A stretch of 64,000 nucleotides of DNA from an uncultured Brevinematales bacterium (GCA_964533855.1 CAZHNM010000002.1:16862-80861); one strand, 5' to 3'. Numbered from the stretch's first letter, positions 5,971 through 41,132 are shown. Notes: generated by a model from the sequence alone, not told the origin. Numbers and translations: made by a program.

Positions 5971-5972
5971 GA

Positions 5973-6212
5973 TTACCTCCCGATCCATGCCGGCAATCTG
6001 CTCATCACAGTTTTTGCCGTTTCCCGTGCCGCCTTGAGATCGAACCCCTGTGTTTTGATTATGAATCCTGTCATGCTTTCAAGTTTTTCGTCGTAGCTCT
6101 GCATTGAACCGTCCGGCCTGGCACAGTGCGCGCAGTAGTCTTTCGAAATGTCGGCCATGGCGAAATCCTGCGGGGTGTTCATAGGCATTGCGCATGCTAT
6201 GCATTTTTTCAT
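5973..6212 (-). CDS. small zinc-ribbon protein
   Basis: 79 aa with two CxxC pairs (CIAC and CAHC). A strong AAGGAGG sits 7 nt upstream of the ATG. Confidence 0.6.
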   Translation of the reverse strand: MKKCIACAMPMNTPQDFAMADISKDYCAHCARPDGSMQSYDEKLESMTGFIIKTQGFDLKAARETAKTVMSRLPAWIGR

Positions 6213-6225
6213 AGTGACTCCTCCT

Positions 6226-6813
6226 TTACCTGCTTATTAATCCCATAAAAAAGTCTAAAAGTTCATCCCTGTACCTTTCCAGGACAGGGCCTCCTCCGGA
6301 GAACATGTCCCTGTTTACAAGGTAGTAATGTATAAGGCCTATCCATGTATTGAAAACAAGGTGAATGGGGACTCTTTTCAGCCGGCCGGCGGCTATATCT
6401 CTTTGGACCGCTCCGTTCAGGTGGTAGGAGACGGCGGACTGGATCATTAAGAGCTCCTGCCTTGCTTGAGCGGGAAGAAGAGGACCTTCGGTCACGAGCC
6501 TTGTATAAAAAGATTCAAAAAGTGAAAGCCCGCTGATATGGGCCTCGAGTATTTCGCGGGTGTTTCCGGCCATGGCTTCCAGCTCATGAATACGTTCGGT
6601 GATTTTTCGGCCGAAATCCTTTACAGCTTCTACAAGGAGGATTTCCCTTGTTGGAAAATGCACAAAAATAGTTCCATGCGCCAGGCCGGCCGCCGAAGCT
6701 ATGTCCGATGTTTTAGCTTTAATAATTCCGTCTTTGACAAACTGGGCCTGGGCGGTCTTAATAATCCTGAGCCGTGTAGCGTCTTTACGGCCGCTTCTTG
6801 TTAATGCCGGCAT
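6226..6813 (-). CDS. TetR/AcrR family transcriptional regulator
   Basis: 195 aa with an N-terminal HTH (KTSDIASAAGLAHGTIFVHFPTRE). A GGAG RBS and an operator-like palindrome lie upstream. Confidence 0.85.
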   Translation of the reverse strand: MPALTRSGRKDATRLRIIKTAQAQFVKDGIIKAKTSDIASAAGLAHGTIFVHFPTREILLVEAVKDFGRKITERIHELEAMAGNTREILEAHISGLSLFESFYTRLVTEGPLLPAQARQELLMIQSAVSYHLNGAVQRDIAAGRLKRVPIHLVFNTWIGLIHYYLVNRDMFSGGGPVLERYRDELLDFFMGLISR

Positions 6814-6828
6814 AATGACTCCATACTC

Positions 6829-6846
6829 AATGAGTATATACTCATT
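6829..6846. promoter_or_regulatory. perfect 18-bp palindrome, putative TetR operator
   Basis: AATGAGTATATACTCATT equals its own reverse complement. It lies 16-33 nt upstream of the TetR start codon and overlaps the -10 hexamer. Confidence 0.5.
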
Positions 6847-6872
6847 ATAATATTATACGGAGATAATGTCAA
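6844..6872 (-). promoter_or_regulatory. sigma-70 type promoter for the TetR gene
   Basis: The minus strand reads TTGACA-N17-TATAAT, an exact consensus. The -35 is at 6867-6872 and the -10 at 6844-6849. Confidence 0.6.
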
Positions 6873-7011
6873 TAGATAATTTAATTAAGCATTGATTTAA
6901 TTTAAAATATTGTTAAACTTAATCAGCAGGCAAAGCGTTTAATCAAGAAAATTGGGAATTTTCAATGAAATAATGTAAAATAAATAGCCGTTATATGAGG
7001 AGAAAGCCTTC

Positions 7012-9456
7012 GTGAAATGGAAGGAGTTTTATGATAAATCCATTGAAACCATATCGTTTACGGACGGTTCAATGGGAGTTCTGCTTCAGAAGTACGGGCT
7101 CACGGGCGGAGAATGCCCCGAATCCTGGAATATCACCCACAGCGATATAATTGAAAAGGTGCATGCCAGCTATATCGATGCCGGAAGCGACCTGATCATC
7201 ACGAACACCCTTGGCGGAAACTCTGTCAAGCTCGGTGAATATAAACTTGAAAATAAGCTCAGGGAACTTAACCAGGCAGCGGTCGTTATCGCAAAAAAGG
7301 CCGCAAAAGGCCGCGCGATTGTGGCCGGAGACGTGGGGCCTACAGGAAAATTCGTAAAGCCCCTGGGAAATATTTCATTTGACGAAATGAAGGATATTTA
7401 CAGGGAACAGATAGAAGTCCTCGCCAATGCCGGAGCGGACTGCATATTTTTTGAAACCCATATAGATATACTGGAGCTGAAGGCGGCGATACTCGCCTGC
7501 AGAGAGGTATGCGATCTTCCTATTATCGCAAGCGTTACATTCGAAGAAGACGGAAGGACTGTAACAGGAAGCCCGGCAGGTGCTGCAATAGTAATGCTCG
7601 AAGCCTTAGGTGTAGACATTGCCGGCACAAACTGCGGAACCGGACCGGATGATATGCTCAGAATTATCCATGAAATAGCACCCCTCGTCTCGATCCCCAT
7701 AATAGCCCAGGCAAATGCAGGCAAACCCTCGCTTGAAAACGGAAAAACCGTTTTCAGATCGGCTCCTGAAAGCTATACCGGCACCGCTTTGAGGATGATA
7801 GAATGCGGAGTAAACTCTGTGGGGGGATGCTGCGGGACAACGCCCGAATATATAAAGCTGCTTCATGACCGTGTCATGGAATTAAAGCCGTTCCTGAAGA
7901 GAAAAGCTTCGAATGTCGATTTTATGAAGCTCTCCAGCCGTTACGCTGTCAGGAAGATAGGGTTCAACCAGGCTTTTACTATAATCGGAGAACGGCTCAA
8001 CCCTACGGCCCGTAAAAAGCTATCGGACGATATAAGGGAAGGACGTTTCGAATTGTTCAGGGAAGAAGCAATTGCCCAGGAAAACTCGGGGGCGGATATT
8101 CTCGATTTGAATATGGGAATAGAAGGTATTTCCGAGAGCTCCTGTTTTGAGAAAGGAATAGAGATTCTCGGCAATCTCGTGAAAACCCCGGTTTCAATCG
8201 ATACCGCAAATCCTGAAGCAGCCGCTCTTGCCATGAAGTTATATCCGGGTAAACCTATCCTCAATTCCATATCAGCCGAGGGAAAACGCCTGGATCTTCT
8301 CAAAGATGTAAAAAAATACGGGGCGTCCTTTATAGCTCTTCCTATAGATGGACATGGAATTCCGAAAACCGCGTCCGAAAGGCTTGCTGTTATGAGAAAA
8401 ATAGTTGCTATGGCGGAGAAAGCCGGCATCGATAAAAGGAACATTCTCGCAGACCCGCTTGTCCTTACTGTTAGCGCCGAACAGAAAGGGGCGTCCGAAA
8501 CCTTGAAGACTATAAGATTATTCAGGGAAGAGCTGGGTCTTTTTACAACATTGGGACTTTCCAACATATCGTTCGGGCTGCCCGCGCGTCCTTACATAAA
8601 CCGGAATTTCCTGTCTATGGCCATATCGGCCGGTCTTACAAGCGCTATAGCAAACCCATTCGACGCCGAGATGATGGGGCTGGTCCGGGCTTCGGATGTT
8701 TTATTGTCAAAGGATATGAATGCAGCAGCATATATAGCCGCTTATGCTTCGGATAGTAAATCCGGAAAGACTGCCCGCGCGGGTACGGCCGGAACAGCGG
8801 TTTCGGAAGATAATTTATCGCCGGGCGAAAAGCTCTACAGGGCGGTTTTGAAGGGAAACAAGGATAATATAGAGGCTCTGATCGGGGAAGCTCTCAAAGC
8901 CGGCGATGAACCCGGCGCCATCCTTGACAGGCATCTCCTTCCCGCGGTGAACGAAGTAGGCAATCTTTATGAAAAAAAAATATATTTTCTCCCCCAATTG
9001 ATGCTCTCCGCTGAAACCATGAAAGCTGCTTTTTCGGTGATAGAGCCTTTGCTCAAGAAAGATGATACGAATGTCAGAGGCAGGATTGTTTTCGCCACAG
9101 TACAGGGGGATGTGCATGATATCGGCAAGAACATAGTCATCCTGCTCATGAAGAACTACGGTTTTGAAGTCCTTGACTTAGGCAAGGATGTTCCCAATGA
9201 GGTTATTCTTCAAAAAGCGGATGAAAATAATGCGGATATTATTGCCTTATCCGCTCTTATGACAACAACAATGCCGAAAATGAAGGAATTTATGGAACTT
9301 ATGAAGGCATCCGGCCGAAAATACAATGTACTTATCGGCGGAGCAGCCGTTACTCGCGAATTTGCCGCCGGCATAGGGGCCAAGTATTCTGTTAATGCTG
9401 TCGAAGCAGTAAAGACAGCTCTTGAAATGGCCGGGGAATTAAGCAGGAGGAAATGA
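7012..9456 (+). CDS. metH: cobalamin-dependent methionine synthase, short form without the AdoMet reactivation domain
   Basis: 814 aa with a GTG start after GAGGAG. It has a homocysteine S-methyltransferase domain (GGCCGTTPEYI), a pterin-binding domain and a B12-binding domain with DVHDIGKN (DxHxxG), SALMTT and GGAAVT. The ORF ends right after the B12 domain. Confidence 0.9.
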   Translation: MKWKEFYDKSIETISFTDGSMGVLLQKYGLTGGECPESWNITHSDIIEKVHASYIDAGSDLIITNTLGGNSVKLGEYKLENKLRELNQAAVVIAKKAAKGRAIVAGDVGPTGKFVKPLGNISFDEMKDIYREQIEVLANAGADCIFFETHIDILELKAAILACREVCDLPIIASVTFEEDGRTVTGSPAGAAIVMLEALGVDIAGTNCGTGPDDMLRIIHEIAPLVSIPIIAQANAGKPSLENGKTVFRSAPESYTGTALRMIECGVNSVGGCCGTTPEYIKLLHDRVMELKPFLKRKASNVDFMKLSSRYAVRKIGFNQAFTIIGERLNPTARKKLSDDIREGRFELFREEAIAQENSGADILDLNMGIEGISESSCFEKGIEILGNLVKTPVSIDTANPEAAALAMKLYPGKPILNSISAEGKRLDLLKDVKKYGASFIALPIDGHGIPKTASERLAVMRKIVAMAEKAGIDKRNILADPLVLTVSAEQKGASETLKTIRLFREELGLFTTLGLSNISFGLPARPYINRNFLSMAISAGLTSAIANPFDAEMMGLVRASDVLLSKDMNAAAYIAAYASDSKSGKTARAGTAGTAVSEDNLSPGEKLYRAVLKGNKDNIEALIGEALKAGDEPGAILDRHLLPAVNEVGNLYEKKIYFLPQLMLSAETMKAAFSVIEPLLKKDDTNVRGRIVFATVQGDVHDIGKNIVILLMKNYGFEVLDLGKDVPNEVILQKADENNADIIALSALMTTTMPKMKEFMELMKASGRKYNVLIGGAAVTREFAAGIGAKYSVNAVEAVKTALEMAGELSRRK

Positions 9457-27131: not shown

Positions 27132-28880
27132 TTGGATCCATCAAAGACGATCCTTTTAGTAGAAGACGAACCTCTCATCGCAATGTCCGAATCGATGGTG
27201 ATAAAAGATTTCGGATATAATGTAATAATATCTTCTACAGGCGAGGACGCAGTCCGGCAGACCATTGACAATGAAAATATCAACCTCATTCTTATGGATA
27301 TTGACCTCGGGAATGGTATCGACGGGACCGCCGCGGCCAAGCTTATTCTCGAAAAGAGGAATATTCCCATTGTTTTCCTAACGTCGCATTTTGAAAAGGA
27401 GATGGTGGATAAGGTAAAGGGAATAACACGATACGGCTATGTCATTAAAAATTCGGGCGAGTTTGTAATCCGCACGTCTATTGAAATGGCTTTTGAGATG
27501 TTCGAAGCGTACAGGAAAATCACAGAAAGCGAGATTTTCAACAGGCGCATTGTTGAAACGGCAAACGAAGGAATAATTTCGCTCGATGAAAACAATGTGA
27601 TAGTATCTGGAAACCGGAAATTAGCCGAAATGCTTGGATACACCCTCGATGAATTGATAGGAATGAGCGCTCTTAAATTATCGTCGCCCGAAGAAGCGTT
27701 AAAGCACCGGCAGGTTATGTCGGACCGCAGAATGGATAAAAAAGGTTTCTATGAAAGGCGGCTTTTAAGAAAAGACGGTTCTGAAATTGTGGTTGTAATT
27801 TCATCTGCCCCCATCTTCAAACCCGGAGGCTCATTCGGCGGATCCTTCGGAATGATAACGGATATTACTCAGCGTTACAGGTCGGATCTATTATTGAAAG
27901 AGAGCGAAGAGAAGTACCGCGCGGCCTTCATTACAAGCCCCGATGCAATTAATATCAATTCGATGGACGGGACCTATATCGATATAAACGAGGGCTTCAC
28001 CAAATTAACGGGTTATTTGCGGCAGGATGTAATAGGGCTTAAATCGACCGAGCTTCTTATCTGGGCTGAACCTGAAGACCGGCTTAAACTTATTGCAGGG
28101 CTGCGAGAAAAAGGTCTTGTCGACAATCTGGAGGCAGTTTTCAGGTCTAAAGACGGCACATTGAAAACCGCCTTGATGTCGGCAAGGATAATTATGATAA
28201 ATAATGTTCCTCATATTTTATCCATTACAAGAGATATCACGGAACGCAAGAATTCCGAAGAAAAGATAAAGGCCCTTCTCAAGGAAAAGGAGCTGCTGAT
28301 CAAGGAAATGAACCACCGTATAAAAAACAATTTGAACACGATCCTCGCACTTCTCTCGCTCCAGTCCAGCAAGCTAAAAAACACAGAAGCTGTTAACGCC
28401 CTTATGGAAACAAAAACAAGGGTTCACAGCATGATGATACTTTATGATAAGATCTATATTTCCAAGAATTATTCCAGAATTTCGATCAGGGACTATGCAT
28501 CGCAGTTAGTTGATGAAATAACCTGTTTATTTCCGGGAGCGGGCAAGGTAAAGATAGAAAAATATATAGAGGATTTCGACATCGATACAAAAACCCTGTT
28601 CAATGTCGGGATCATCATTAATGAAATTATTACCAACTCCATGAAATACGCCTTTACAGGCAGGGAAGACGGCCGGTTATATATATCGATTTCTCAGAAA
28701 GACGGTAAAGTCATTATTGAAATAGGGGATAACGGGCCTGGTATTCCGGAATCGATAGATATCGATTCGTCCGGCTTCGGTCTCCAGCTTGTCAAGCTTC
28801 TCACCGGTCAGATCGGGGGAATATTAAAAATCGAAAGGCGGCAGGGCTGTAAATTTACAGTTGAATTCAAACTCGAATAA
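27132..28880 (+). CDS. hybrid sensor: receiver (REC) - PAS - PAS - HisKA_2/HWE-type histidine kinase
   Basis: 582 aa with a TTG start after GGGGGG. The REC domain shows ILLVEDEP and LILMDIDL. Two PAS-like segments follow. The H-box is HRIKNNLNTILALLSLQ, followed by DNGPGI and GFGLQL. Confidence 0.85.
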   Translation: MDPSKTILLVEDEPLIAMSESMVIKDFGYNVIISSTGEDAVRQTIDNENINLILMDIDLGNGIDGTAAAKLILEKRNIPIVFLTSHFEKEMVDKVKGITRYGYVIKNSGEFVIRTSIEMAFEMFEAYRKITESEIFNRRIVETANEGIISLDENNVIVSGNRKLAEMLGYTLDELIGMSALKLSSPEEALKHRQVMSDRRMDKKGFYERRLLRKDGSEIVVVISSAPIFKPGGSFGGSFGMITDITQRYRSDLLLKESEEKYRAAFITSPDAININSMDGTYIDINEGFTKLTGYLRQDVIGLKSTELLIWAEPEDRLKLIAGLREKGLVDNLEAVFRSKDGTLKTALMSARIIMINNVPHILSITRDITERKNSEEKIKALLKEKELLIKEMNHRIKNNLNTILALLSLQSSKLKNTEAVNALMETKTRVHSMMILYDKIYISKNYSRISIRDYASQLVDEITCLFPGAGKVKIEKYIEDFDIDTKTLFNVGIIINEIITNSMKYAFTGREDGRLYISISQKDGKVIIEIGDNGPGIPESIDIDSSGFGLQLVKLLTGQIGGILKIERRQGCKFTVEFKLE

Positions 28881-28925: not shown

Positions 28926-28954
28926 TTGCAATAAAAATAAAATGGTTTTATAAT
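28926..28954 (+). promoter_or_regulatory. candidate sigma-70 promoter of the V-ATPase operon
   Basis: TTGCAA-N17-TATAAT, located 30 nt upstream of the atpK ATG. Confidence 0.55.
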
Positions 28955-28983
28955 TAGCGGTAAATTACTTTGCGGAGGAAAAT

Positions 28984-29454
28984 ATGTTGTTTGTCGGTAT
29001 ATTGGTATTAGCTCTATTGACGGGCGGCACAGCCCTGATCTATTTCAGGTACAAAAAAGAAAATATAAGCGGCAAAATCAAAGGCGCATTTGTGAAGACG
29101 ATCGGGATTACCGGCCTGTTTTCAATCCTGATACTCAGCGTCGGGCTTCTCTCCATGACTGTGACGAAAGTGCATGCGCAGGCTGCTCAGACCTCAGGCC
29201 AGAGCGCTCCTGCCGCTGAAGTAAAATCTCCGGCCCAGAGCCAGCTTGGCCTCGGTCTCGTCGCTGCGGCGCTTGCATTCGGCCTGGGCGCTCTTGGGGC
29301 AGGTATCGCGGTAGGCATGTCAGGAGCTGCTGCAATCGGCGCAATATCGGAGAATCCTAAAATGTTCGGAAGCGCTATAGTCTTTGTAGGTCTTGCCGAA
29401 GGAATCGCCATTTACGGCATCGTTATGGCTATTCTCATTCTCGGGAGAGTATAA
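28984..29454 (+). CDS. atpK: V/A-type ATP synthase proteolipid subunit K (c) with an N-terminal extension
   Basis: 156 aa with a GGAGGA RBS. The C-terminal ~75 aa form a single Gly/Ala-rich c-subunit hairpin (GAGIAVGMSGAAAIGAISENP ... VGLAEGIAIYGIVMAIL, with the carboxylate Glu). The N-terminal ~80 aa are two unrelated hydrophobic helices plus an Ala/Gln/Ser-rich linker. Confidence 0.8.
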   Translation: MLFVGILVLALLTGGTALIYFRYKKENISGKIKGAFVKTIGITGLFSILILSVGLLSMTVTKVHAQAAQTSGQSAPAAEVKSPAQSQLGLGLVAAALAFGLGALGAGIAVGMSGAAAIGAISENPKMFGSAIVFVGLAEGIAIYGIVMAILILGRV

Positions 29455-29500
29455 ACCTATTACCGGTATTTTGAGTAAGTATTTTCAACAGGAATAACAG

Positions 29501-29806
29501 ATGAAATTGATCGTTCTTGGCGATAAGGAAACATCTCTTTTGTTCGGCCTTGCAGGTGTAGAAACCAGGATAATTGAGGATCAGGAATCCGCTATTAATG
29601 AAATCAAGAAAATCAGGAAATTAAAAAACTACGGGTTAATAGTTGTGACTGAAAGAGTGGCGCGGTGGTCCATGGATATCCTGAACACAATGCGCTTCTC
29701 TAAGGAACTTCCCCTGATCATCGATATTCCGGATTCGAAAGGCCATATCGAGGGCGCCAAGAACCTCGCGGAATTCATAAGGGAAGCTGTCGGAATAAGG
29801 ATATAG
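29501..29806 (+). CDS. atpF: V/A-type ATP synthase subunit F
   Basis: 101 aa. MKLIVLGDKETSLLFGLAGVE ... YGLIVVTERVA matches the typical subunit F pattern, and the gene sits in the operon. Confidence 0.75.
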   Translation: MKLIVLGDKETSLLFGLAGVETRIIEDQESAINEIKKIRKLKNYGLIVVTERVARWSMDILNTMRFSKELPLIIDIPDSKGHIEGAKNLAEFIREAVGIRI

Positions 29807-29816
29807 AAGGTGTCCT

Positions 29817-30398
29817 ATGGGTCTTAAGGAAATATTAGACGATATCAGCCGGGAATCGGAAGAGCTGAATAGTTTTACGTTCAGTTCCGCTAAAATAGAA
29901 TCTGAAAATAAAATGCTCCAGGCTGCCGAGGAAATCGAGAGGAAAAGAGAAGAAAAAAAAGATGAACTGGCCGCAGATATCAAGCGCAGGCGAATCAAAC
30001 TGACTGCAAAAGCCGAACTCGACGCATACAGGGAGAGGCAGAAGCTCGAGGTGAATCTCATTGACAATGTTCTTGATGAATCGTTCAAGGAATTGATTAA
30101 AGAGATAAATAAAAACAGGGAAAACTACCTTTCTTTTCTGAAAAAGTTAGTCAGTGCATCTGTAGCTTTGATAGGCACTTTGCCCGTGGAAGTTTCGCTA
30201 TCGAAGGATGACGCGGCGCTTTTCAATGAAATAGCTAAAGATTTTAAGCAGGGCGATCTCATCCTTGCCGGCAGCGCGAAGATGTCCGGGGGAGTAATTT
30301 GCTCTTCCGGCGGAAGTTATGTCGATAATTCGATAGAAAATATTTTCGAGAAACAGAGGCCTGCATTCCTGAAAATGATTTCCGAAGAATTGGCCTGA
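29817..30398 (+). CDS. atpE: V/A-type ATP synthase subunit E (peripheral stalk)
   Basis: 193 aa with a long charged N-terminal helix and a globular C-terminal domain (GGVICSSGGSYVDNSIE). The gene sits in the operon. Confidence 0.7.
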   Translation: MGLKEILDDISRESEELNSFTFSSAKIESENKMLQAAEEIERKREEKKDELAADIKRRRIKLTAKAELDAYRERQKLEVNLIDNVLDESFKELIKEINKNRENYLSFLKKLVSASVALIGTLPVEVSLSKDDAALFNEIAKDFKQGDLILAGSAKMSGGVICSSGGSYVDNSIENIFEKQRPAFLKMISEELA

Positions 30399-30412
30399 TT
30401 AAGGACGTTTGA

Positions 30413-31090
30413 ATGAAAGTTAAAAACCCTGAAATAGACGTCGGGGGTAAAAAGTTTCTGAGGATACCTGTTAAAACCCATGTGATTACAAGGGATGACA
30501 GGATTGTAGACGTTGTAAAAAAATATGCGCTTCCTGAACTTAAAGAAAATGACATTGTTTTTATTAGTGAAAAAGCCGTGGCAATAACCCAGGGAAGGGC
30601 TTTTCCCGTGAAAGACATTAAACCGGGCTGGCTTGCCGTGTTTTTATCAGGGCATGTTACGAAAACGCCCAATGGAATAGGGCTTGGAATACCGGAAACG
30701 ATGGAAATGGCTTTAAAAGAATGCGGTGTAATAAGGATTCTAATAGCTGCCGCTATCGGTTTTGCAGGCAAGCTTCTCGGAAGAAAGGGTGATTTCTACA
30801 GGGTAGCCGGTTATAAAGCGTCTTCGATTGACGGTCCGACGCCCAATACGCTTCCGCCCTATAATACATATGTAGTGCTTGGCCCTGCCAGGCCGGATTC
30901 TGTTGCAAGCGAAATTGCAGGTGCGATAAAAGAACGTACTGTTATAGCCGATCTTAACGACCTCGGCGGTAAAATCCTCGGAAGATCCGACAGGTCGCTC
31001 GACAAATACTGGCTTTTATCGGTCCTGAGGGATAACCCGCTTGGGCAGAGTTCCGAGCAGACCCCTATAGGAATTATCAGAGAAATTTAG
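30413..31090 (+). CDS. CofE-like (F420-0:gamma-glutamyl ligase fold) protein embedded in the V-ATPase operon
   Basis: 225 aa. By eye it aligns to archaeal CofE, which I am quoting from memory. NDIVFISEKAVAITQGRAFPVKDIKP aligns with GDVLVVCSTVISKAEGRIRRLEEFNP. ASSIDGP aligns with NAGIDAS, VIADLND with IITDTNG, and TPIGIIRE with IPAVVVRG. Confidence 0.5.
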   Translation: MKVKNPEIDVGGKKFLRIPVKTHVITRDDRIVDVVKKYALPELKENDIVFISEKAVAITQGRAFPVKDIKPGWLAVFLSGHVTKTPNGIGLGIPETMEMALKECGVIRILIAAAIGFAGKLLGRKGDFYRVAGYKASSIDGPTPNTLPPYNTYVVLGPARPDSVASEIAGAIKERTVIADLNDLGGKILGRSDRSLDKYWLLSVLRDNPLGQSSEQTPIGIIREI

Positions 31091-31117
31091 TCCCGAAGAA
31101 TTGTTTAGAGGAATATT

Positions 31118-32896
31118 ATGGATAGTAAAAAAGCGGGTGTAATTTTAAAAATCAACGGTCCCATTATTCATGCAAAGCTAACCGATATGCTGCAGATGAT
31201 GGAGCTTGTCGAAGTATCGGATTATCATCTTATAGCGGAAGTGCTCAGCATACGCGGTGATATAGCGATTATCCAGGTTTATGAGGATACCAGCGATATC
31301 AAGCCGGGAGATCCGGTATACAGCACAGGTCTTCCTCTGTCAGTAGACCTAGGGCCGGGGATTATCGGAAATATTTTCGACGGCATACAGAGACCGCTTG
31401 AGGAAATTGAAAAAAGATCCGGGATTTATATCGGCAGGGGTATAAATGTCCCTTCCCTCGACAGGGAGAAAAAGTGGCATTTCCAGCCCAGGGTTGCAGA
31501 AGGCGCAAGGCTGGCCGGGGGAGCAATAATCGGAACCGTCCAGGAAACGAGCGTTATCGAACACAGGATACTTATCAGGCCTGACGTTAAACCGGGTGTT
31601 CTTGTCAAAATGGTTCCCGAGGGGGAATATTCTCTTAACGATGTGATAGCCGTTTTAAAGACTGATGAAGATGAAGAAGTTGAAATAAAGCTTTACCACA
31701 GGTGGCCGGTAAAAGTTCCGAGGCCCGTAGTAGACAGGTCGAAACCCGTTATACCTCTCATAACGGGGCAGAGGATCGTCGACATGTTTTTCCCTATAAC
31801 AAAGGGGGGTACGGCAGGAATACCGGGAGGTTTCGGTACCGGGAAGACCATAACCCAGCACCAGCTTGCTAAATGGGCCGACGCCCAGGTTATTGTCTAT
31901 ATCGGATGCGGTGAAAGGGGAAACGAGATGACGGAAGTGCTCGAAGACTTCCCGAAGCTTATAGACCCGAGAACCGGCAAACCCTTGATGGAAAGGACTA
32001 TTCTTATTGCTAATACATCCAATATGCCTGTAACAGCCAGGGAAGCATCCATTTATACAGGTATTACACTGGGCGAGTATTACAGGGATATGGGTTACGA
32101 TGTCGCTATCATGGCTGATTCGACTTCCCGCTGGGCGGAAGCCCTCAGGGAACTTTCCGGAAGACTCGAAGAAATGCCGGCCGAAGAAGGATTTCCCGCA
32201 TACCTCGGCTCGAGGCTTGCCGCGTTTTACGAGAGGGCGGGATATGTCAAAACCAAATCCGGATCTTTCGGCTCAATCAGCGTTATAGGCGCGGTTTCTC
32301 CTCCGGGAGGTGATTTCTCGGAGCCTGTGACGCAGAATACAAAGAGATTTGTGAGATGTTTCTGGGAGCTCGATAAAAACCTCGCGAGCAGCCGCCACTA
32401 TCCGGCTATAAACTGGATGAGAAGCTACAGCCAGTATGTCGATGACGTCCGCCCATGGTGGGATGAGCATGTCGCCACAGATTACCGTGAAGTCAGGATT
32501 AAAACTTTCGAAATCCTTCAAAAAGAGGACCAGCTGCAGAGGATAGTTAAATTGATAGGCCCGGATGCGCTGCCCGACAGCGAAAGGCTTTACCTTGAGG
32601 TCGCAAGGCTTATCAAACTCGGCTTCCTCCAGCAGGGAGCTTTCGATGAAATAGATACTTATTCAACACCCGAAAAACAGTTGAAAATATTGAGGATCTT
32701 TCTTAAATTCCTTGAAAGGGCTGAGGAGATCATCAAGCTCGGGGCGCCGATCCTGACTATAAGGGAAATGAAGTGCATACCGGATATGATCCGTATCAAG
32801 CTCACTGTTCCTAACAACAAGCTAAGCGATATCGACGATATAGAAAAGATAATGCATAAGGAATTCGATGTATTGAAGGAAGAGTATAAAGACTAA
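31118..32896 (+). CDS. atpA: V/A-type ATP synthase catalytic subunit A
   Basis: 592 aa with the Walker A GGFGTGKT. The sequence is typical of subunit A, including the non-homologous insert region and [14 protein letters not shown]. Confidence 0.95.
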
Positions 32897-32925
32897 TAGC
32901 CTCATTAAGTTCATTGGAGTTTAAA

Positions 32926-34320
32926 ATGGCCGTGGAAATGAGAAAAGAATATGTTGGAATTGCCGGCTTAAAAGGGCCTCTGGCAATAGTTGAAGGCATC
33001 AAGGGCATCGGTTATGACGAAATGGTCGAAATGAAGCTTCCGGACGGCTCCGTGAGAAACGGCAAAGTCCTGGAGTCATCGGACGATGCCGTTTTAATAC
33101 AGATATTCGAGGGTTCCAGCGGTATAAATCCTCGGAATGTAAGGGTGTCCTTCAAGGGCAAGCCTTTTGAAATAGGTCTGTCGGATAAAATACTCGGAAG
33201 GGTATTTAACGGCATGGGCAAGCAGATAGACGGGCTTGCAGAAATTATTCCCGATGTGATTAAAAATGCGAACGGGGAACCTCTCAACCCTGTTGTCAGA
33301 GCATACCCCCGCGAATATATAGAATCAGGTATAACGACAATAGATCTTATGAATACCCTCGTCCGGGGTCAAAAACTGCCTATATTTTCTGCGGCAGGTC
33401 TTCCCCATAATGAGTTAGCCGCCCAGATAGCCGCTCAGGCAAAACTTCCCGGTGAACAGTCCGGAAATTTTGCGGTTATTTTCGCCGCAATGGGTATCAA
33501 ACATGATGACGCTTTTTTCTTCAGAAGCAATTTTGAAGAAACGGGAGCCTTGAAAAACGTTGCAATGTTTTTAAATTTAGCAGACGATCCGCCTATAGAA
33601 AGGATCATTACCCCCAGAGTTGCCCTGACGGCAGCCGAATACCTGGCTTACGAAAAGGACATGCACGTTCTCGTCATCCTGACAGATATGACCAGTTATT
33701 GCGAAGCTCTCAGGGAGATCGCGAATGCAAGGGGTGAAGTTCCAGCCAGGAAAGGTTTTCCTGGATATATGTACAGCGACCTGTCAACTATTTATGAAAG
33801 GGCCGGAAGGGTCCAGAATAAAAAGGGCAGTATTACGCAGGTGCCGATCCTCACGATGCCTAACGACGATATAACGCACCCGGTGCCCGATCTGACCGGC
33901 TATATTACAGAGGGGCAGATAGTTTTAGGAAGAGATCTTAACGGAAAGGGAATATATCCTCCCGTCGATATTCTTCCTTCTCTTTCAAGGCTTATGAAGG
34001 ATAGTATCGGCAAAGGTTATACCAGGGATGATCATCCCCACCTTTTCATGCAGCTTTACGCAAGCTACGCCAGGGTTAAAGAGGTAAGGTCCATAGCGTC
34101 GATCGTAGGTGAAGAGGAACTCGGCGCAATTGAGCAGAGCTACCTCAAATTCGGAAACAGGTTCGAGCATGAATTTATAGGGCAGGGATTCAACGAAGAC
34201 AGATCTCTTGAACAAAGCCTGGCCCTCGGCTGGAAAATGCTGTCTCTTCTGCCTAAGACAGAACTGACAGGCCTGCGCGAGGAAGAAATCAAGATGTATT
34301 ATACAGAGGAAGAAAAGTAG
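32926..34320 (+). CDS. atpB: V/A-type ATP synthase subunit B
   Basis: About 464 aa with typical B-subunit sequence (ILTDMTSYCEALREI, GSITQVPILTMPNDDITHP). The ATG at 32926 follows TGGAG. The ORF track starts at TTG 32914. Confidence 0.95.
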   Translation: MAVEMRKEYVGIAGLKGPLAIVEGIKGIGYDEMVEMKLPDGSVRNGKVLESSDDAVLIQIFEGSSGINPRNVRVSFKGKPFEIGLSDKILGRVFNGMGKQIDGLAEIIPDVIKNANGEPLNPVVRAYPREYIESGITTIDLMNTLVRGQKLPIFSAAGLPHNELAAQIAAQAKLPGEQSGNFAVIFAAMGIKHDDAFFFRSNFEETGALKNVAMFLNLADDPPIERIITPRVALTAAEYLAYEKDMHVLVILTDMTSYCEALREIANARGEVPARKGFPGYMYSDLSTIYERAGRVQNKKGSITQVPILTMPNDDITHPVPDLTGYITEGQIVLGRDLNGKGIYPPVDILPSLSRLMKDSIGKGYTRDDHPHLFMQLYASYARVKEVRSIASIVGEEELGAIEQSYLKFGNRFEHEFIGQGFNEDRSLEQSLALGWKMLSLLPKTELTGLREEEIKMYYTEEEK

Positions 34321-34329
34321 GATAATTAT

Positions 34330-34965
34330 ATGAATATTTCCGAAGTAGCACCTACTAAAACAAACCTCCTGGATTTTAAATCGCAGCTGGGGTTTTCGAT
34401 AGACGGCCATGCACTGCTTGAAGAAAAGCGGGAAATTCTTGTCATGCAGCTTGTCGATATTGTCTCGAAAATCAAGGAAGTGAGGGAAAGCATCAATAAT
34501 CTTCTTGCCCGAAGTTATGAACTGCTTCAGATTGTTTCCCTTGAAATCGGAGAACTCGAATTAAGAAACATTTCCGATACGCAGAAAGAATTGCCGGAAA
34601 TTGAAATACATGAAAAAAGAGTAATGGGTGTAAGCATACCCTCGATAAAATATAAAGAAGAGATAAAAACTTCAGCAAGACCCGATATTTCCTTCTCTTC
34701 TTCCACGATAAATTTCGATATGCTGTCGAAGCAGGTCAAGGAAATTGTCAAGCTTATCATTGTTGTAGCGCAGGTTGAAGATTCGGCATGGAAACTTGCA
34801 TACGAGATAAAAAAAACTCAGAGGCGCGTCAACGCCCTCGAGAATATCTTTATACCTGAATTCAGGGAAATTATTAAATTTATCCAGGATACGCTCGAGG
34901 AAAGGGAAAGAGAAACATTTTTCCAGCTCAAGAGGATAAAAAACAATCAGGACGCTTCCGTTTAA
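34330..34965 (+). CDS. atpD: V/A-type ATP synthase subunit D (central stalk)
   Basis: 211 aa. The N-terminal PTKTNLLDFKSQLGFSIDGHALLEEKREIL pattern is typical of subunit D. Confidence 0.85.
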   Translation: MNISEVAPTKTNLLDFKSQLGFSIDGHALLEEKREILVMQLVDIVSKIKEVRESINNLLARSYELLQIVSLEIGELELRNISDTQKELPEIEIHEKRVMGVSIPSIKYKEEIKTSARPDISFSSSTINFDMLSKQVKEIVKLIIVVAQVEDSAWKLAYEIKKTQRRVNALENIFIPEFREIIKFIQDTLEERERETFFQLKRIKNNQDASV

Positions 34966-34983
34966 CTGGCGGGGAGGTTTACT

Positions 34984-35436
34984 ATGAGCAGAATTTATTT
35001 TCCTTTAACTGGCTCAGCAGAGAACAGGAAGGCTATCGCGAAAGTCATATCTTTTGCAGGGTCCTTTAATATGAAATTAACCGCAATTTCTGTCGTCAAC
35101 AATGAATTACTCTTTAAAATGGAAAGATATAAGATTTTCATTAAGGAAGAAACCACGATTATCAAAAATGGAATGACTAAAGACGCCGAGAATTATCTCA
35201 ACCATGTAAAAAAGCTCGGCAGCGAGGGAGGAGTCGAAGTAACTCCTGTTCTTCTCGAAGGCGACCCCTATTCCTGTATTATGGATTACATAAAGCACGA
35301 TAAGGAAGATAATAAGATCGTCTGCGTGGCAAAAAAATGCGGGGGAGAATTTTTAAAAGACATTTTTTCGGCAGTTGAAAGAAAAATACTGCTGAATACG
35401 ACTTTCGACACTTTTGTTATCGGGGAGAATGTATGA
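34984..35436 (+). CDS. universal stress protein (USP)-like protein embedded in the V-ATPase operon
   Basis: 150 aa with a GGGGAGG RBS. It has a USP-like layout: IYFPL start, GDPYSCIMDYIK, and a C-terminal FSAVERKILLNTTFDTFVIG resembling the USP GSV..VL....PVLVV tail. The ATP-binding G-x2-G-x9-GS motif looks degenerate. Confidence 0.5.
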   Translation: MSRIYFPLTGSAENRKAIAKVISFAGSFNMKLTAISVVNNELLFKMERYKIFIKEETTIIKNGMTKDAENYLNHVKKLGSEGGVEVTPVLLEGDPYSCIMDYIKHDKEDNKIVCVAKKCGGEFLKDIFSAVERKILLNTTFDTFVIGENV

Positions 35437-35741
35437 AGGAACTAATATCCGCCGTGCTCGACGCCGAGGAAAATCTGCAGAAGAAGGCAAAATCGGTTGA
35501 TGAAAAAATTCAGGACTTGAATATTCAGGCGGAAGGAAAAATAAGCCGGATGAACAATGAACTTGAAGATGAGATTATAAAGGAAAAGAATGAAAAAACC
35601 AATAGCCTCGATATTGAAATAAGGGTTTACAGCGATAAACTGCATAATGAAATAGAGCGCGATATGAAAGCAAAAACAGAAAAGCTGAATGCCAAGAAGC
35701 CTGCAATTTTCTCCAGGATTATTAATTCGATAATCGGTTAA
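35433..35741 (+). CDS. small coiled-coil protein, candidate V/A-ATPase peripheral-stalk subunit G/H
   Basis: 102 aa that looks almost entirely charged helix. It overlaps the upstream gene as ATGA. Its size and composition match the G (archaeal H) subunit, which is otherwise missing from the operon. Confidence 0.4.
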   Translation: MKELISAVLDAEENLQKKAKSVDEKIQDLNIQAEGKISRMNNELEDEIIKEKNEKTNSLDIEIRVYSDKLHNEIERDMKAKTEKLNAKKPAIFSRIINSIIG

Positions 35742-35758
35742 GACAAAAGAGGATAATT

Positions 35759-36763
35759 ATGTTTGGTGAAGAATACGCCTCGGTTTATCCGAAGGTTAAA
35801 AGCTGGGCCGGAACATTAGTGCTGACTAAGGATAAATGCTCCGAGATGCTTTCGATGAATTTAGCCGATTATAAGCAGTATCTAAAATCGCTGTCGAAAA
35901 AGATAAGTTTGAATACCGAAGATAATGTTCAGCTCGAAGGCCAGCTCAAGCAGGAAGGCTATTATTTTATCGAGAGTATAAGCCGTTATCTCATGGGTTA
36001 CACCAAAGATTTTGTAAACTACCTGGGTAAAATGCTCGAGATTGAGAACCTGAAATTAGTAACAAGGGCTCTGCTGAATAAGAGGCCCGTTAATTTCCTG
36101 TATAAACTAAAAAAAATGAGCCGTATCCAGATGGAATTTGTAAAGGATATCAAAACCCTCGAAGAATTCCATGAACTGCTCAGCGGCACTGAATATTACA
36201 GACTGGCAACGGACGCAATACCGAGGATAGAGAGCGAAAACACAACATTTTATTTTGAAATGAACCTCGATAATTACTATGCAAATAACATCAAAAAGAA
36301 GGTTTCAAAATTAGGGCCTGATGAGAAGCAGCAGGTTAAAAATATATTTTATTATTACATGAATGTAAACCGGCTGTTATGGATTTACAGAGCCAAATTC
36401 AATTATTCGATGTCTAATGAGGAAATAATAGCAATAGTCCCGAATATACAGGTGATCTTCAACAAGGCGCAGTACCAGGCCCTTCTAGACTCGGAAACCA
36501 AAGAGGATTATATCGAGAATTTAAAAAAATCCGGTTTCCTCGAGATTAGAAACCCGGATCATTTCGATCTTGAAAGGGAGATGCATTATCAGCTTCTGAT
36601 CAAGGGGAAGTCCTGTCTTTCGGGATACCCGTTCAGCCTCGGTGTTTTTCTCGGATTTTTCGTTTTGAATATAATACATGTGAAAAATCTTATTACTGTT
36701 TTAGAAGCAAAAAAACTTGATATTGATCCCGCTAGGGTTATGGATCTGCTGATTTATTATTAA
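35759..36763 (+). CDS. atpC: V/A-type ATP synthase subunit C (eukaryotic d / AC39 family)
   Basis: 334 aa with an AAGAGGA RBS. The EIENLKLVTRALLNKRP pattern recurs in the C/d family, and the gene sits in the operon. Confidence 0.6.
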   Translation: MFGEEYASVYPKVKSWAGTLVLTKDKCSEMLSMNLADYKQYLKSLSKKISLNTEDNVQLEGQLKQEGYYFIESISRYLMGYTKDFVNYLGKMLEIENLKLVTRALLNKRPVNFLYKLKKMSRIQMEFVKDIKTLEEFHELLSGTEYYRLATDAIPRIESENTTFYFEMNLDNYYANNIKKKVSKLGPDEKQQVKNIFYYYMNVNRLLWIYRAKFNYSMSNEEIIAIVPNIQVIFNKAQYQALLDSETKEDYIENLKKSGFLEIRNPDHFDLEREMHYQLLIKGKSCLSGYPFSLGVFLGFFVLNIIHVKNLITVLEAKKLDIDPARVMDLLIYY

Positions 36764-36773
36764 GGATTAACCG

Positions 36774-38729
36774 ATGTTTATAGCGCAGAGAATGAAGAAA
36801 ATCGACATGCTGATCGTGAAGAAGCTGGCCGATGAAGTATCCAGGGAAATTGTCAAATTCGGAGATTTCCAGTCTATTGAAATAAACGGTGAAAAAGCGA
36901 AAAGCCTGATGCTTTCAAAGAATGCCACCGATGCAGGCGTTGCGCGTTTTACAGATCTCGATAAAAGAATCAATTATCTCATGACAACCTTCGAAAGCAT
37001 AATGGAAAACATCGGATTGTGGAAAAACGAGGAGATCACGGAATCCGGGATGACTGATGTCGAAACCCTTGAAATAAATGTAAAGTCTATAGAAACAGAA
37101 TTGAATTTTCATAACAGCGACCTTGAAAGGCTCCGGAACGACCAGAAAGACGCTAAAATCAGGATCAAGAAAATCAATTACTTTTCAGAGCAGGATATAG
37201 ACTGGGCAAGGGCCGAAAATCTAAGGTTTTTCGATATCGGATTCGGAAGCATCCCCATGACCGGCTACGAAGGATTTGAAAGCGCAATGCAGACTCTTCC
37301 TTCAATTGTAGAAAAAATCGACACGGTAGGCGACGTAGTTATCGTGTTTTATATGGCTCCCGCTTCGATAAAAGACAAGGTCTTACAGATCCTGAAAAGC
37401 GTTTACTTCAAGGACTACGGGATTCCCAGGTCGACTGTCGAAGCCGGCAAGTCGGCACTTGTGCATTACGCGTTCGAATTATCGGCGGCTTATGATGAGG
37501 AATTATGGCAGGAAAAACAGTTTAAAAAAAGTGTTCTTGACTACAGGACCCTGCTGAAGACTCTTAAAAACAGCGCCCAGTATTATATTGCGATGGAGCG
37601 CCTGAAGGGTGAAATGGTTTATTCAGATAAAGTCTGCGTTTTTTCAGGATGGGTGCCTTCGAAGATTGTTCATAAATTAGAAAAGAAAATGGAGCAGGTT
37701 TCCGGGAATAGATGCGTATTTTTAGAGCAGAGCGCATCTAAAGTCATGGATGAAGAGGGCATGATGCCTCCTACAAAGTTCAATAATCCGTTCTTTATAA
37801 AACCTTTTGAAATGCTGACATCGACTTTCGGTACTCCGAATTACAGGGAAATCGATCCCACCCCCATAATGGCGGTGACTTTTATCCTCATGTATGGCGC
37901 CATGTTCGGGGACGCCGGCCAGGGCCTGGTCATCGTGCTTCTCGGCATTCTCGTGTTTTTGGTAAAGAAGCTCAAATCGTTCAGGGCGTTCGGGGCGATA
38001 TTGATCTATGCCGGGCTTTCCGCGTCGTTTTTCGGCGTTATGTACGGGGCTATATTCGGTTTTGAAAATGTTTTGAAACCTGTCTGGATAAATCCCATGG
38101 AACATATAAACGATATTCTAATGATTTCAGTGGGTTACGGCTCTTTGGTGATTTTATGCGCCATGCTGCTTAACATTATAAACAGCATAATGGAAAGAAA
38201 TTACGGCCGGCTTCTCTTTTCGACAAACGGTGCCGCAGGACTAGGATTTTACGGTTCTCTGATATTTGTGGCTTTGTGCGCTATTAGAGGAATTCATTAC
38301 CCGAATTATGTGTTTATAATAACAGGCGCCTGCGCCATTCTCATCGCACTGGAAAAGAACCTTGAAAGATGGTTTTTCGGCCATCATGGCAAGGGGGCGG
38401 ATGATGAAAAACCTAGCATCGGATTGGGTTTAATTGAAATGTATGAATCCATGATGGGTTTCCTCAGCAACACCATTTCTTATATCAGGGTAGGCGCCTT
38501 TGCGCTGAACCATATCGCCCTGATGAGCGTGGGTTTTATTTTTGCTTATTCCTCAAAAGAACCGGCCGTTCAATGGATCGTGCTTCTCCTATGGAATCTC
38601 TTTATTATTGGTTTCGAAGGATTCATAGTCTTCATACAGGTTATAAGGCTCGAATACTACGAATTCTTCACGCGCTTCTTCCGCGCGGACGGCAAGGCCT
38701 TCGAAGGAATAGGGATCTACAAACCGTAG
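36774..38729 (+). CDS. atpI: V/A-type ATP synthase subunit I (a)
   Basis: 651 aa with a soluble N-terminal half and a polytopic C-terminal half. It has SYIRVGAFALNH (essential Arg region) and RLEYYEFFTRFF. Confidence 0.85.
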   Translation: MFIAQRMKKIDMLIVKKLADEVSREIVKFGDFQSIEINGEKAKSLMLSKNATDAGVARFTDLDKRINYLMTTFESIMENIGLWKNEEITESGMTDVETLEINVKSIETELNFHNSDLERLRNDQKDAKIRIKKINYFSEQDIDWARAENLRFFDIGFGSIPMTGYEGFESAMQTLPSIVEKIDTVGDVVIVFYMAPASIKDKVLQILKSVYFKDYGIPRSTVEAGKSALVHYAFELSAAYDEELWQEKQFKKSVLDYRTLLKTLKNSAQYYIAMERLKGEMVYSDKVCVFSGWVPSKIVHKLEKKMEQVSGNRCVFLEQSASKVMDEEGMMPPTKFNNPFFIKPFEMLTSTFGTPNYREIDPTPIMAVTFILMYGAMFGDAGQGLVIVLLGILVFLVKKLKSFRAFGAILIYAGLSASFFGVMYGAIFGFENVLKPVWINPMEHINDILMISVGYGSLVILCAMLLNIINSIMERNYGRLLFSTNGAAGLGFYGSLIFVALCAIRGIHYPNYVFIITGACAILIALEKNLERWFFGHHGKGADDEKPSIGLGLIEMYESMMGFLSNTISYIRVGAFALNHIALMSVGFIFAYSSKEPAVQWIVLLLWNLFIIGFEGFIVFIQVIRLEYYEFFTRFFRADGKAFEGIGIYKP

Positions 38730-38882: not shown

Positions 38883-40214
38883 ATGCCGTATTTTGATAAA
38901 TATTACCAGAGAATGCCCGATGGAACAATAAAGCAGATAAATCCGTATAACGGTACGGAAGTATGGTGCGTTGAAGAAAGGAAAAGAGGGCCGATCCTGA
39001 ATGCCGTTCCCAGGAACCCTGTCCCTCTGAGGGTTTCAATACCTGAAAATTACTGTGATTTCTGCTGTTCAAAGTACGAGTTATGCACGCCTGAAAAGGC
39101 AAGGGTCGTCAGGGAAGCTGATGGAAAATGGAGAAAATACTACCGGGTAGAGTCTGAAAAACCTGGAGGATGTTCTGCGGATTTCAGGCTTGTCGGCAAT
39201 CTCTTTGAAATTGTGACATATGATTACTGGGCCAAGAATTATCATTATAAAATGAATAAAACGAACAGGGACTGGAAAGAAAAATATCTGAGCAGCCCTA
39301 AGGGCTATAATCATGCGATGAAGATGCTCGAAATAAAATTAAACAGGATGGGAGCCGATTTTTCTTCGATGCCTGAGGATGAAAAGATTGAAAAATTGAA
39401 TCCGTTCTTCGGCGGCTCTCATGACCTTATAATCGGGAAGCGCCATTACCGTGAAGGAGCGAAATTTACCCATGAGCTGTGCTCATCGGGAGAGATGACA
39501 GTCGAAGAACATTTCCAGTATATTCTTTTTACGGCTGAAAGCGTAAAAGATCTTTTCGATCAAAATCATTTTATCAGGTATATAATCGTGTTCCAGAACT
39601 GGCTCAGACCCGCCGGGGCTTCATTCGACCATCTTCACAAGCAGCTCGTAGGACTCGACGAATGGGGTGTCCAGATGGAAAGAGAAATGGCCGAGCTGAA
39701 CAGGAATCAGAACCTCTATAATGAATTTTCAATTAATTTCGGGATTTATCACTCAATGATACTTGCAGAAAATGATTATGCTATTGCCGTAACGGAGATA
39801 GGCCACCGTTTTCCGACAGTGGTGGTTTATTCAAAAAGCGAAACCAGCAGGCCTTTCGAGCAGACAAGGGAAGAGATAAAGGGAATGAGCGATCTTGTGC
39901 ATGCGGTCCATTGCGTTACGACAAGCCAGACAACATGCAATGAGGAGTGGTATTATTCTCCCTTCGACTCTGTTTACAGCATGCCATGGCGCATATGTAT
40001 CAAACTGCGAATACATACTCCGGCAGGATTCGAAGGAAACACCGAGATTTATATAAATCCTGTGCATCCCAGGAAGCTTGCCTCCGAACTGGCAAAACTT
40101 CTCGAAATAAAAAGGGATGAAGGTCTTATCTGCCCGGATATAAGAATCGGCGGAGAAGTGAAAAGGGAGCCGAATGTTTTGAAATACTACAAAAATAAAT
40201 TGAAGAGACTGTAG
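38883..40214 (+). CDS. GalT/HIT-superfamily nucleotidyltransferase-like protein (DUF4921-like)
   Basis: 443 aa with the FDHLHKQL (HxHxQ) active-site motif of galactose-1-phosphate uridylyltransferase-type enzymes. An N-terminal CDFCC motif could bind zinc. Confidence 0.55.
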   Translation: MPYFDKYYQRMPDGTIKQINPYNGTEVWCVEERKRGPILNAVPRNPVPLRVSIPENYCDFCCSKYELCTPEKARVVREADGKWRKYYRVESEKPGGCSADFRLVGNLFEIVTYDYWAKNYHYKMNKTNRDWKEKYLSSPKGYNHAMKMLEIKLNRMGADFSSMPEDEKIEKLNPFFGGSHDLIIGKRHYREGAKFTHELCSSGEMTVEEHFQYILFTAESVKDLFDQNHFIRYIIVFQNWLRPAGASFDHLHKQLVGLDEWGVQMEREMAELNRNQNLYNEFSINFGIYHSMILAENDYAIAVTEIGHRFPTVVVYSKSETSRPFEQTREEIKGMSDLVHAVHCVTTSQTTCNEEWYYSPFDSVYSMPWRICIKLRIHTPAGFEGNTEIYINPVHPRKLASELAKLLEIKRDEGLICPDIRIGGEVKREPNVLKYYKNKLKRL

Positions 40215-40217
40215 CGG

Positions 40218-41132
40218 ATGTTTGAGGTTTTTTATCAGGTTCTTCTGCCTGTTGTCCTGATTTTTGCCGCCGGTTTTCTCATAGGCAGGCTCTTTCCGAT
40301 AAACAGGAAATCTTTTTCAATAATATCCCTGTACCTCCTGACGCCGGCTCTGGTATTTTCCTCGATTTACGGATACAGGGATTTTTTTTCAGGGACTACC
40401 CTTAATATTTTCATTGTCATTTCATTAATTATCTTGTTAACAATTGCGGCAGTCGAGATATTGGATCTGATCTTTCGTTTTGAAAAGAGTTTTAAGACGG
40501 TGCTCCTGCTATCGCTGATCCTGACAAATTCAGGGAATTTCGGACTTCCCGTCACACAATACGCCTTCGGAATACAGGGCCTTCTAACAGGAACCCTCGC
40601 TATGGTTTTTTATATATTTTATACTCACACAGCAGGAGTTATTATAGCCGCTTCCGATAAAAGCTCCGTTAAAGAATCTTTCTTCAAGATGCTTCAAATA
40701 CCTGTTTTTTATGCCTTTGCAGCCGCTATGGCCCTGAATTATTTTAAAGTACCTATACCAGCCCAGATTTCGGGCAGCATTCGGGACTTAGGCTACAGCG
40801 GAATAACCCTGAATCTTCTTTTCGTTGGCATTACGCTCTCGGATATAAAAATAAACAGGAATATACTTGGCGTTTCACTGATAAGCATAGTGAAATTGGT
40901 TGTAATACCTCTCGCGGCTTTTCCTATTCTCGTATTATCAGGCTTAAAAGGACTTGATTTGAAAGTAACATTGACCCAGATTGCCATGCCCTCGGCGATT
41001 TACTGCACGATTCTGGCAAGCCATTTCGAAAGCGATGTCAAATTAGCAAGCGAAATCGTCCTGGCGTCTCTTCTTCTAAGTATTGTAAGCCTTTCGGGTC
41101 TTATATATTTGCTTAACTTATTTATAAAATAA
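40218..41132 (+). CDS. AEC (auxin efflux carrier) family transporter
   Basis: 304 aa with about 10 hydrophobic helices. The N-terminus MFEVFYQVLLPVVLIFAAGFLIGR is typical of the family. Confidence 0.7.
   Translation: MFEVFYQVLLPVVLIFAAGFLIGRLFPINRKSFSIISLYLLTPALVFSSIYGYRDFFSGTTLNIFIVISLIILLTIAAVEILDLIFRFEKSFKTVLLLSLILTNSGNFGLPVTQYAFGIQGLLTGTLAMVFYIFYTHTAGVIIAASDKSSVKESFFKMLQIPVFYAFAAAMALNYFKVPIPAQISGSIRDLGYSGITLNLLFVGITLSDIKINRNILGVSLISIVKLVVIPLAAFPILVLSGLKGLDLKVTLTQIAMPSAIYCTILASHFESDVKLASEIVLASLLLSIVSLSGLIYLLNLFIK

Follow-up and report, generated by a model that had tools for sequence, protein, structure and literature searches.

Gene order and subunit content

The V/A-type ATPase operon of Thermus thermophilus, atpGILEXFABD, encodes subunits G, I, L, E, C, F, A, B and D, with G first and with I adjacent to L, the c subunit; its proteolipid is a single hairpin. 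The Na+-V-ATPase operon of Enterococcus hirae, ntpFIKECGABDHJ, also has I and K adjacent, with K a duplicated four-helix proteolipid, and ends in two non-structural passengers, ntpH and ntpJ (a K+ transporter component). Here we analyze a V/A-type ATPase operon in a 64,000-nucleotide (nt) stretch of DNA (GCA_964533855.1 CAZHNM010000002.1:16862-80861; hereafter the window) from an uncultured member of the Brevinematales, an order within the Spirochaetota. Eleven open reading frames (ORFs), all on the plus strand, span positions 28984-38729 of the window in the order K-F-E-X-A-B-D-Y-ORF9-C-I, where X (ORF4) encodes a CofE-like protein, Y (ORF8) a universal stress protein (USP) and ORF9 a coiled coil of 102 amino acids (aa). 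The subunit inventory is the same set of nine found in T. thermophilus, whose operon lacks the USP and CofE-like genes that the window has, and the passengers are from other families than those of E. hirae.

If G-C-I-K-F-E-A-B-D-USP is rotated cyclically so that G-C-I comes to the 3' end, and X is added, the result is exactly the gene order of the window. A genome scan anchored on subunit A recovered at least 80 loci with 55-60% identity to the window protein, and the 80 listed come from Chloroflexota, Spirochaetota, Clostridia, the Planctomycetes-Verrucomicrobia-Chlamydiae (PVC) phyla, Thaumarchaeota and others. When their ORFs were labelled by phmmer and hidden Markov models (HMMs), all bacterial operons of sufficient length to be assessed were found to read G-C-I-K-F-(E)-A-B-D. 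This order is present in about 65 bacterial operons of other phyla among the loci listed, often with a USP gene after it, and two loci (L087 and L090) have the complete G-C-I-K-F-E-A-B-D-USP in gene calls with Pfam labels. These operons (L006-L090; Spirochaetota, PVC, Chloroflexota and Clostridia) share with the window the same subunit families and the adjacencies K-F-E, A-B-D-USP and G-C-I, but they carry G-C-I at the 5' rather than the 3' end and have no CofE-like gene. Each of the three blocks is intact in the window, and the USP/G boundary is the new junction made by the rotation. An earlier note on this DNA had called the order non-canonical and placed K and I at opposite ends of the operon; the family assignments bear out the latter, and the order does differ from that of relatives, although as an exact rotation rather than an arbitrary scramble.

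The rotated order is conserved in one clade, whose members we reached through protein searches with X and the USP (a metagenome scan with subunit C gave just two close relatives). The same 11-gene order, including both inserted genes, is found in at least six further independent contigs (L001/L002, L005, L088, L086, L093 and L094), and L091/L092 carries the 3' part of the rotated operon. Four of these operons (L001, L005, L088 and L086) were aligned with the window, and their proteins are between 30% (G) and 91% (A) identical to those of the window. The flanks differ in nearly every copy, the exception being L092, which shares the window's downstream DUF4921 and Mem_trans genes. In a neighbour-joining (NJ) tree, the A and B subunits of the seven full rotated operons group together as one clade in all 100 bootstraps. 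Since the same order occurs in independent contigs and A and B are monophyletic, the order is no accident and misassembly is excluded; the simplest reading is a lineage trait with a single origin. In L086, subunit E is broken into two ORFs (7298-7880), by a frameshift or an assembly error.

Eight of the canonical subunits were assigned with Pfam and NCBIfam at curated thresholds, which upholds the identification of the locus as a V/A-type ATPase operon. The catalytic subunit A (31118-32896) and the non-catalytic subunit B (32914-34320) both carry the V/A-specific domains, matching Pfam ATP-synt_ab, ATP-synt_ab_Xtn and ATP-synt_VA_C (ATP-synt_ab and associated domains, E = 1.1e-73 for A and 2.9e-78 for B), and both exceed the cut-offs of their NCBIfam models, NF003220 for A (879.6 bits) and NF003235 for B (728.6 bits). 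For subunit B, the most probable start is ATG 32926, which has GGAG in front of it (32916-32919), and not the TTG at 32914 given by the ORF call. The central stalk is complete by Pfam: D (34330-34965; ATP-synt_D, E = 9.8e-51), F (29501-29806; ATP-synt_F, E = 4.3e-16) and C (d or AC39; 35759-36763; vATP-synt_AC39, E = 2.6e-32), which couples rotor to stalk. Peripheral-stalk subunit E (29817-30398) matches Pfam vATP-synt_E (E = 7.3e-8, 32.5 bits against a cut-off of 24.2) as well as NCBIfam subunit E, and the membrane stator I (a; 36774-38729) matches V_ATPase_I (E = 7.5e-30). Subunit K (c; 28984-29454) matches Pfam ATP-synt_C over residues 94-152 (E = 1.3e-16) and NCBIfam V-type subunit K.

The K proteolipid consists of one hairpin and is extended at its N terminus by hydrophobic sequence; its putative ion-binding carboxylate, E139, is the same in all 13 K subunits that were aligned (alignment A5). 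Judging from other rotary ATPases, a ring of such single-hairpin subunits should be compatible with ATP synthesis. Ahead of the hairpin (residues ~94-152) come two hydrophobic segments and a linker rich in A, Q, S and T, which closes with the AxA-like sequence 'VHAQA'. A shorter version of this extension occurs in relatives; the extension may be a cleaved pro-sequence or a signal-like segment.

The ninth subunit, G, is assigned to ORF9 (35433-35741) through a profile-profile match and synteny. The earlier note had recognized that the subunit set would be complete only if this 102-aa ORF were G. ORF9 has no Pfam family match, and it lies directly 5' of C, as G does in relatives: about 50 of the 80 listed operons have an ORF of ~103 aa directly 5' of C. 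We aligned 30 of these upstream-of-C ORFs (A4) and, separately, the members of the ORF9 family that five Brevinematales-type operons encode (A3). A4 matches solved V-ATPase subunit G structures over their full length (E = 1e-8 to 8e-7), including those of T. thermophilus (3v6i and 5y5x), and A3 aligns end to end with A4 in hhalign (probability 95.5%, E = 1.5e-8). When an HMM was built from the upstream-of-C ORFs, ORF9 was the one ORF of the window that it recovered (E = 5.5e-5). On these profile comparisons ORF9 is the predicted peripheral-stalk subunit G, which would give the operon its E and G pair. With ORF9 as G, all nine canonical subunits are present and the three extra genes of the earlier note are reduced to two. 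From what is known of the family, nine such subunits are expected to form a standard A3B3-DF-C-(EG)2-I-K(n) rotary enzyme. The operon is a real, conserved variant and no new kind of machine.

The two additional genes

Y (34984-35436) encodes a divergent USP of a subfamily found directly after atpD, as judged from a subfamily HMM, profile searches and an AlphaFold2 (AF2) model compared by Foldseek. Taken alone, Y falls under the cut-off of Pfam Usp (PF00582; 18.6 bits, E = 0.0028, cut-off 24), and it scores 73.8 bits with a subfamily HMM built without Brevinematales sequences. Pfam Usp is matched by 17 of 20 aligned subfamily members, all listed database matches of the subfamily profile carry PF00582, and profile A1 matches the USP structures MJ0577, TeaD and TTHA0350 with E-values from 4e-22 to 4e-18. 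For the AF2 model of Y (predicted local distance difference test score, pLDDT, 71.6), the structures ranked best by Foldseek are USPs (TTHA0350, MJ0577, UspA and TeaD; template modelling score, TM, 0.67-0.69), and an identical copy of ORF8 is annotated as 'universal stress protein' at NCBI. On these grounds, we place Y in the USP family and its post-atpD subfamily. The ATP-binding motif G-x2-G-x9-G-(S/T) of the MJ0577 class is absent from Y, which carries AKKCGGEFLKDIFSAV at that position. In our alignments the motif is intact only in the members from L045, L049 and L057 (Bathyarchaeia and 'delta') and is degenerate in those from spirochaetes, PVC phyla and Brevinematales. The degenerate motif puts Y outside the ATP-binding subclass but still within the family.

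The earlier note had treated the USP-like gene as an extra one from a family with no known ATPase role. Its USP identity stands, but the same subfamily follows atpD in many phyla. Searching with phmmer from Y and then with an HMM, we found 17 of the 80 listed loci to have a homologue as the next ORF after atpD; these represent about eight phylum-level groups: seven Spirochaetota-labelled loci (Spirochaetaceae, Spirochaetales and 'Spirochaetes'), two each from Planctomycetota, Anaerolineae (Chloroflexota) and Bathyarchaeia, and one each from Verrucomicrobiota, Omnitrophota, Victivallales (Lentisphaerota) and a 'delta proteobacterium'. None of the loci from Clostridia, other Bacillota-labelled organisms or Thaumarchaeota among the 80 has a USP gene after D. 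The post-atpD USP gene often overlaps the stop codon of D, and an 'IFV..E...Y' insertion is common to the window USP and the post-atpD USPs of relatives. One high-scoring USP, P0140, is not visibly beside an ATPase, so the profile also collects generic USPs. A reading of the USP as clade-restricted was dropped: a word-seeded search had given just eight close relatives, and phmmer and profile searches showed the wider subfamily.

The nearest parallel for a USP encoded with a membrane transport machine is TeaD (PDB 3hgm), a single-domain USP that the post-atpD USP profile matches at E = 3.8e-18 and whose fold the model of Y shares. TeaD binds ATP. Unlike TeaD, the window USP lacks the G-x2-G-x9-G-S/T motif, and any interaction with the ATPase is putative. 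We found no paper linking USPs with V/A-type ATPase operons, and nothing relevant on Brevinematales and ATPases. By analogy with TeaD, which plays such a part for its transporter, the USP is most likely an inherited accessory gene that would modulate the ATPase or help to assemble it. An EIIA-Ntr-like gene (PTS_EIIA_2, Pfam E = 1e-27 to 1e-39) comes next after the post-atpD USP gene in several operons of Spirochaetota and Omnitrophota (L087 10502-10951, L059 14307-14762, L070 14340-14789 and L058 14277-14735). This suggests a two-gene regulatory tail of the ATPase operon, of which the EIIA-Ntr-like part is absent from the window.

X (30413-31090), which lies between E and A as the earlier note had proposed for a CofE-like gene, matches the Pfam F420_ligase family (PF01996; 2.5e-12, 47.2 bits against a cut-off of 25). 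Foldseek with its AF2 model (pLDDT 86.5) matches only the CofE of A. fulgidus (2phn, 2g9i and 7uld; E = 1.7e-8, TM ~0.6), at 13-14% identity. X therefore shares the unusual fold of CofE and FolC2/CT611 (COG1478) and passes the Pfam family cut-off, but it is far from both at the level of NCBIfam equivalogs: its 21.6 bits compare with cut-offs of 180.65 and 274 for the CofE models TIGR01916 and NF009809, and its 17.9 bits with one of 350 for FolC2 (TIGR04132). Searches of PDB chains with the single sequence (phmmer) and with a profile (hmmsearch) gave no CofE match. Nor did we see cof genes (such as cofC, cofD or cofG/H) beside any operon copy, a check that covered the flanking genes. CofE-family enzymes are GTP-dependent gamma-glutamyl ligases (PMC10861534), and FolC2 shows that the family also acts outside F420 synthesis (PMC1971073). 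X is best described as a putative nucleotide-dependent amide-bond ligase. We also considered X as a divergent C/d subunit, on the model of DUF2764, whose gene fills the position between E and A in chlamydial and spirochaetal operons, and rejected this: a normal C is present and X has the CofE fold.

X belongs to a large and highly conserved family. More than 4,800 relatives are in the database, the named close ones almost all from Clostridia at 66-74% identity, and mean column identity is 72% over 40 sequences. Within the operon, X ranks third in conservation after A and B, with identities to the window of 85, 75, 77 and 69% in four operons compared with 91, 83, 83 and 76% for A. Its guanine-plus-cytosine content is unremarkable. 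Homologues of X are found in none of the 80 other listed ATPase loci, and we see the gene inside an ATPase operon only in the window clade; X is the only gene of the operon specific to that lineage. The seven operon-embedded copies and 21 other database proteins form one NJ subtree (midpoint-rooted, with a short stem), and the three of its members whose context was checked afterwards (P0007, P0025 and P0118) all lie inside the rotated operon. Elsewhere, the homologue in Lutispora thermophila (72% identical) adjoins murB, PHP, rapZ, yvcK (CofD family) and whiA (L003/L004 10001-14399). This locus thus co-locates CofE-like and CofD-like proteins in an organism not known to make F420.

Origin of the arrangement and competing explanations

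We consider it probable that the locus is one operon encoding a complete V/A-type ATPase, in which an ancestral rotation was combined with the insertion of X, the USP being an inherited accessory gene and X a housekeeping hitchhiker. How the rotation came about and what the USP and X do, we infer as follows. In the ancestor of one Brevinematales lineage, an operon with the widespread order G-C-I-K-F-E-A-B-D-USP would have been rotated so that G-C-I came to lie after the USP gene, either by tandem duplication and loss of the outer halves or by transposition of one block, both of which give the order seen. A gene for a CofE-fold ligase would have been inserted between E and A, and the USP would have been retained from the ancestral operon as an accessory gene. 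For X itself, the likeliest reading is a housekeeping ligase that is transcribed with the ATPase genes but takes no structural part in the enzyme.

Several points weigh against this account. The 80 listed loci are a sample that does not include the window's own clade, and the sister group of that clade is Clostridia-type in only 52 of 100 bootstraps, so that the ancestral state rests on the outgroup majority. The assignment of ORF9 as G depends on coiled-coil profiles, which are prone to spurious alignment; the upstream-of-C HMM also weakly matches E subunits, and A3 alone, when searched against the PDB, found no subunit G but only coiled-coil noise of apolipoprotein type, so that the intermediate family A4 is needed for the assignment. 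That the 11 genes form one transcript is likewise something we infer. Finally, X holds its slot across operons whose K, C and I share only 47-49% identity, which is more than one might expect of a pure hitchhiker, and the position it keeps may reflect a functional link to the ATPase.

One rival explanation is that the USP, and possibly X, are true accessory or regulatory partners of the enzyme, the USP tuning activity or assembly in response to a nucleotide or stress signal and X modifying a ligand or subunit that the ATPase needs. One USP subfamily right after atpD in at least 17 sampled operons from about eight phylum-level groups, often overlapping the D stop, would fit such a role, as would the 4-nt USP/G overlap, which suits translational coupling, the EIIA-Ntr-like gene that follows the USP in some relatives, and the profile match to TeaD, whose gene in Halomonas elongata accompanies those of the TRAP transporter TeaABC (PDB entry title). 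X, for its part, is conserved like the core subunits and its position is held clade-wide. However, the ATP-binding motif of the window USP is degenerate, and the USP is dispensable in the Clostridia, Bacillota-labelled and thaumarchaeal operons, where none follows D in the loci listed. The X homologues of Lutispora are unlinked to ATPase genes, X is missing from all 80 other listed operons, and the literature yielded no paper connecting USPs with V/A-type ATPases. We regard such partnership as possible but doubtful. A bolder version seems to us unlikely: that the USP found after atpD in many bacterial and some archaeal phyla is a partner, so far undescribed, in the regulation or assembly of V/A-type ATPases, that the rotation locked it between D and G in Brevinematales, and that the same lineage recruited X as a second dedicated partner. 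An equally improbable proposal would make X a FolC2-like gamma-glutamyl ligase, acting on folate or another cofactor and riding on a strongly expressed operon to which it is functionally unrelated. CT611/FolC2 takes the place of FolC in Chlamydia (PMC1971073, PMC4161248), FolC is listed as predicted missing in Borrelia and Treponema (PMC1971073), folB, folK and folE lie directly 5' of K in L094, and X does match TIGR04132 weakly. However, that match is at 17.9 bits of the 350 required and the CofE models score about equally, which places X in a third subfamily; the folate neighbourhood is seen in one operon copy only, and the neighbours of the Lutispora homologue are cell-envelope and regulatory genes (murB, rapZ and yvcK) rather than folate genes. 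Least credible of all, with hardly any weight in our assessment, is that the order is an artefact of metagenome assembly or binning, or that two transcription units are simply juxtaposed. The source is a metagenome-assembled genome and the terminator and promoter signals are not decisive, but at least eight contigs have this order, drawn from separate samples and built by different assemblers and including contigs of 1.8, 2.0 and 2.7 Mb; their operon proteins differ by about 10-70%, and the USP/G junction made by the rotation is a 4-nt overlap.

With the rotation of an ancestral operon as the preferred account, the locus is a clean natural case of cyclic permutation in a multi-subunit operon that has been stably inherited lineage-wide, and its combination of kept local adjacencies with swapped ends bears on the idea that operon order reflects assembly order. 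The more interesting leads lie in the two additional genes. The recurrent atpD-USP linkage across phyla marks a candidate regulator of prokaryotic V/A-type ATPases that we did not find in the literature, and X flags a highly conserved CofE-fold enzyme family, abundant in Clostridia, whose members are ~70% identical across phyla.

Expression signals and neighbouring genes

The eleven co-directional genes with short gaps and a 4-nt overlap described in the earlier note were recovered as ORFs, with gaps measured at 9-46 nt (from K to I in turn: 46, 10, 14, 27, 17, 9, 18, -4, 17 and 10 nt). The negative value is an ATGA in which the stop codon of the USP overlaps the start of G, and this overlap argues for one translationally coupled unit. 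Upstream, K's ATG at 28984 is preceded by a GGAGG ribosome-binding site, and a consensus scan found a sigma-70-like promoter candidate, TTGCAA-N17-TATAAT, on the plus strand at 28926-28954 (10 of 12 matches), within the 103-nt gap 5' of K. The motif reported earlier is thus present, but statistically it is no better than background: the 10-kb region contains 25 promoter-like matches compared with 19 +/- 5 in shuffled sequences, and the candidate is plausible because of its position rather than its statistics. A terminator scan after I gave no clear candidate, and Rfam and tRNA scans of the window returned no matches.

Directly 5' of the operon and co-directional with it is a hybrid sensor gene (27132-28880) with the domains REC, two PAS, HisKA_2 and HATPase_c; this neighbour is not kept beside the other operon copies. 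On the 3' side of I (38883-41132) lie two genes, one whose 443-aa product matches DUF4921 (Pfam E = 1.5e-163) and one for a Mem_trans-family protein of 304 aa, and in L092, a related metagenome contig, two ORFs of the same lengths follow I (4023-6270). A few kb 5' of the operon in L086 (1-3215) are Mrp/Mbh-like genes (Proton_antipo_M, Complex1_49kDa and Oxidored_q6), and in L094, and in this contig only, folB, folK (HPPK) and folE (GTP cyclohydrolase I) lie at 5999-7437, directly 5' of K and co-directional with it. Among the relatives with G-C-I at the 5' end, four Chloroflexota loci (L006, L008, L011 and L012) have an extra c-subunit-like ORF (~79 aa) and a 244-aa ORF 5' of G (~3740-4140), and parts of a second rotary ATPase are found nearby in L016, L024 and L048.

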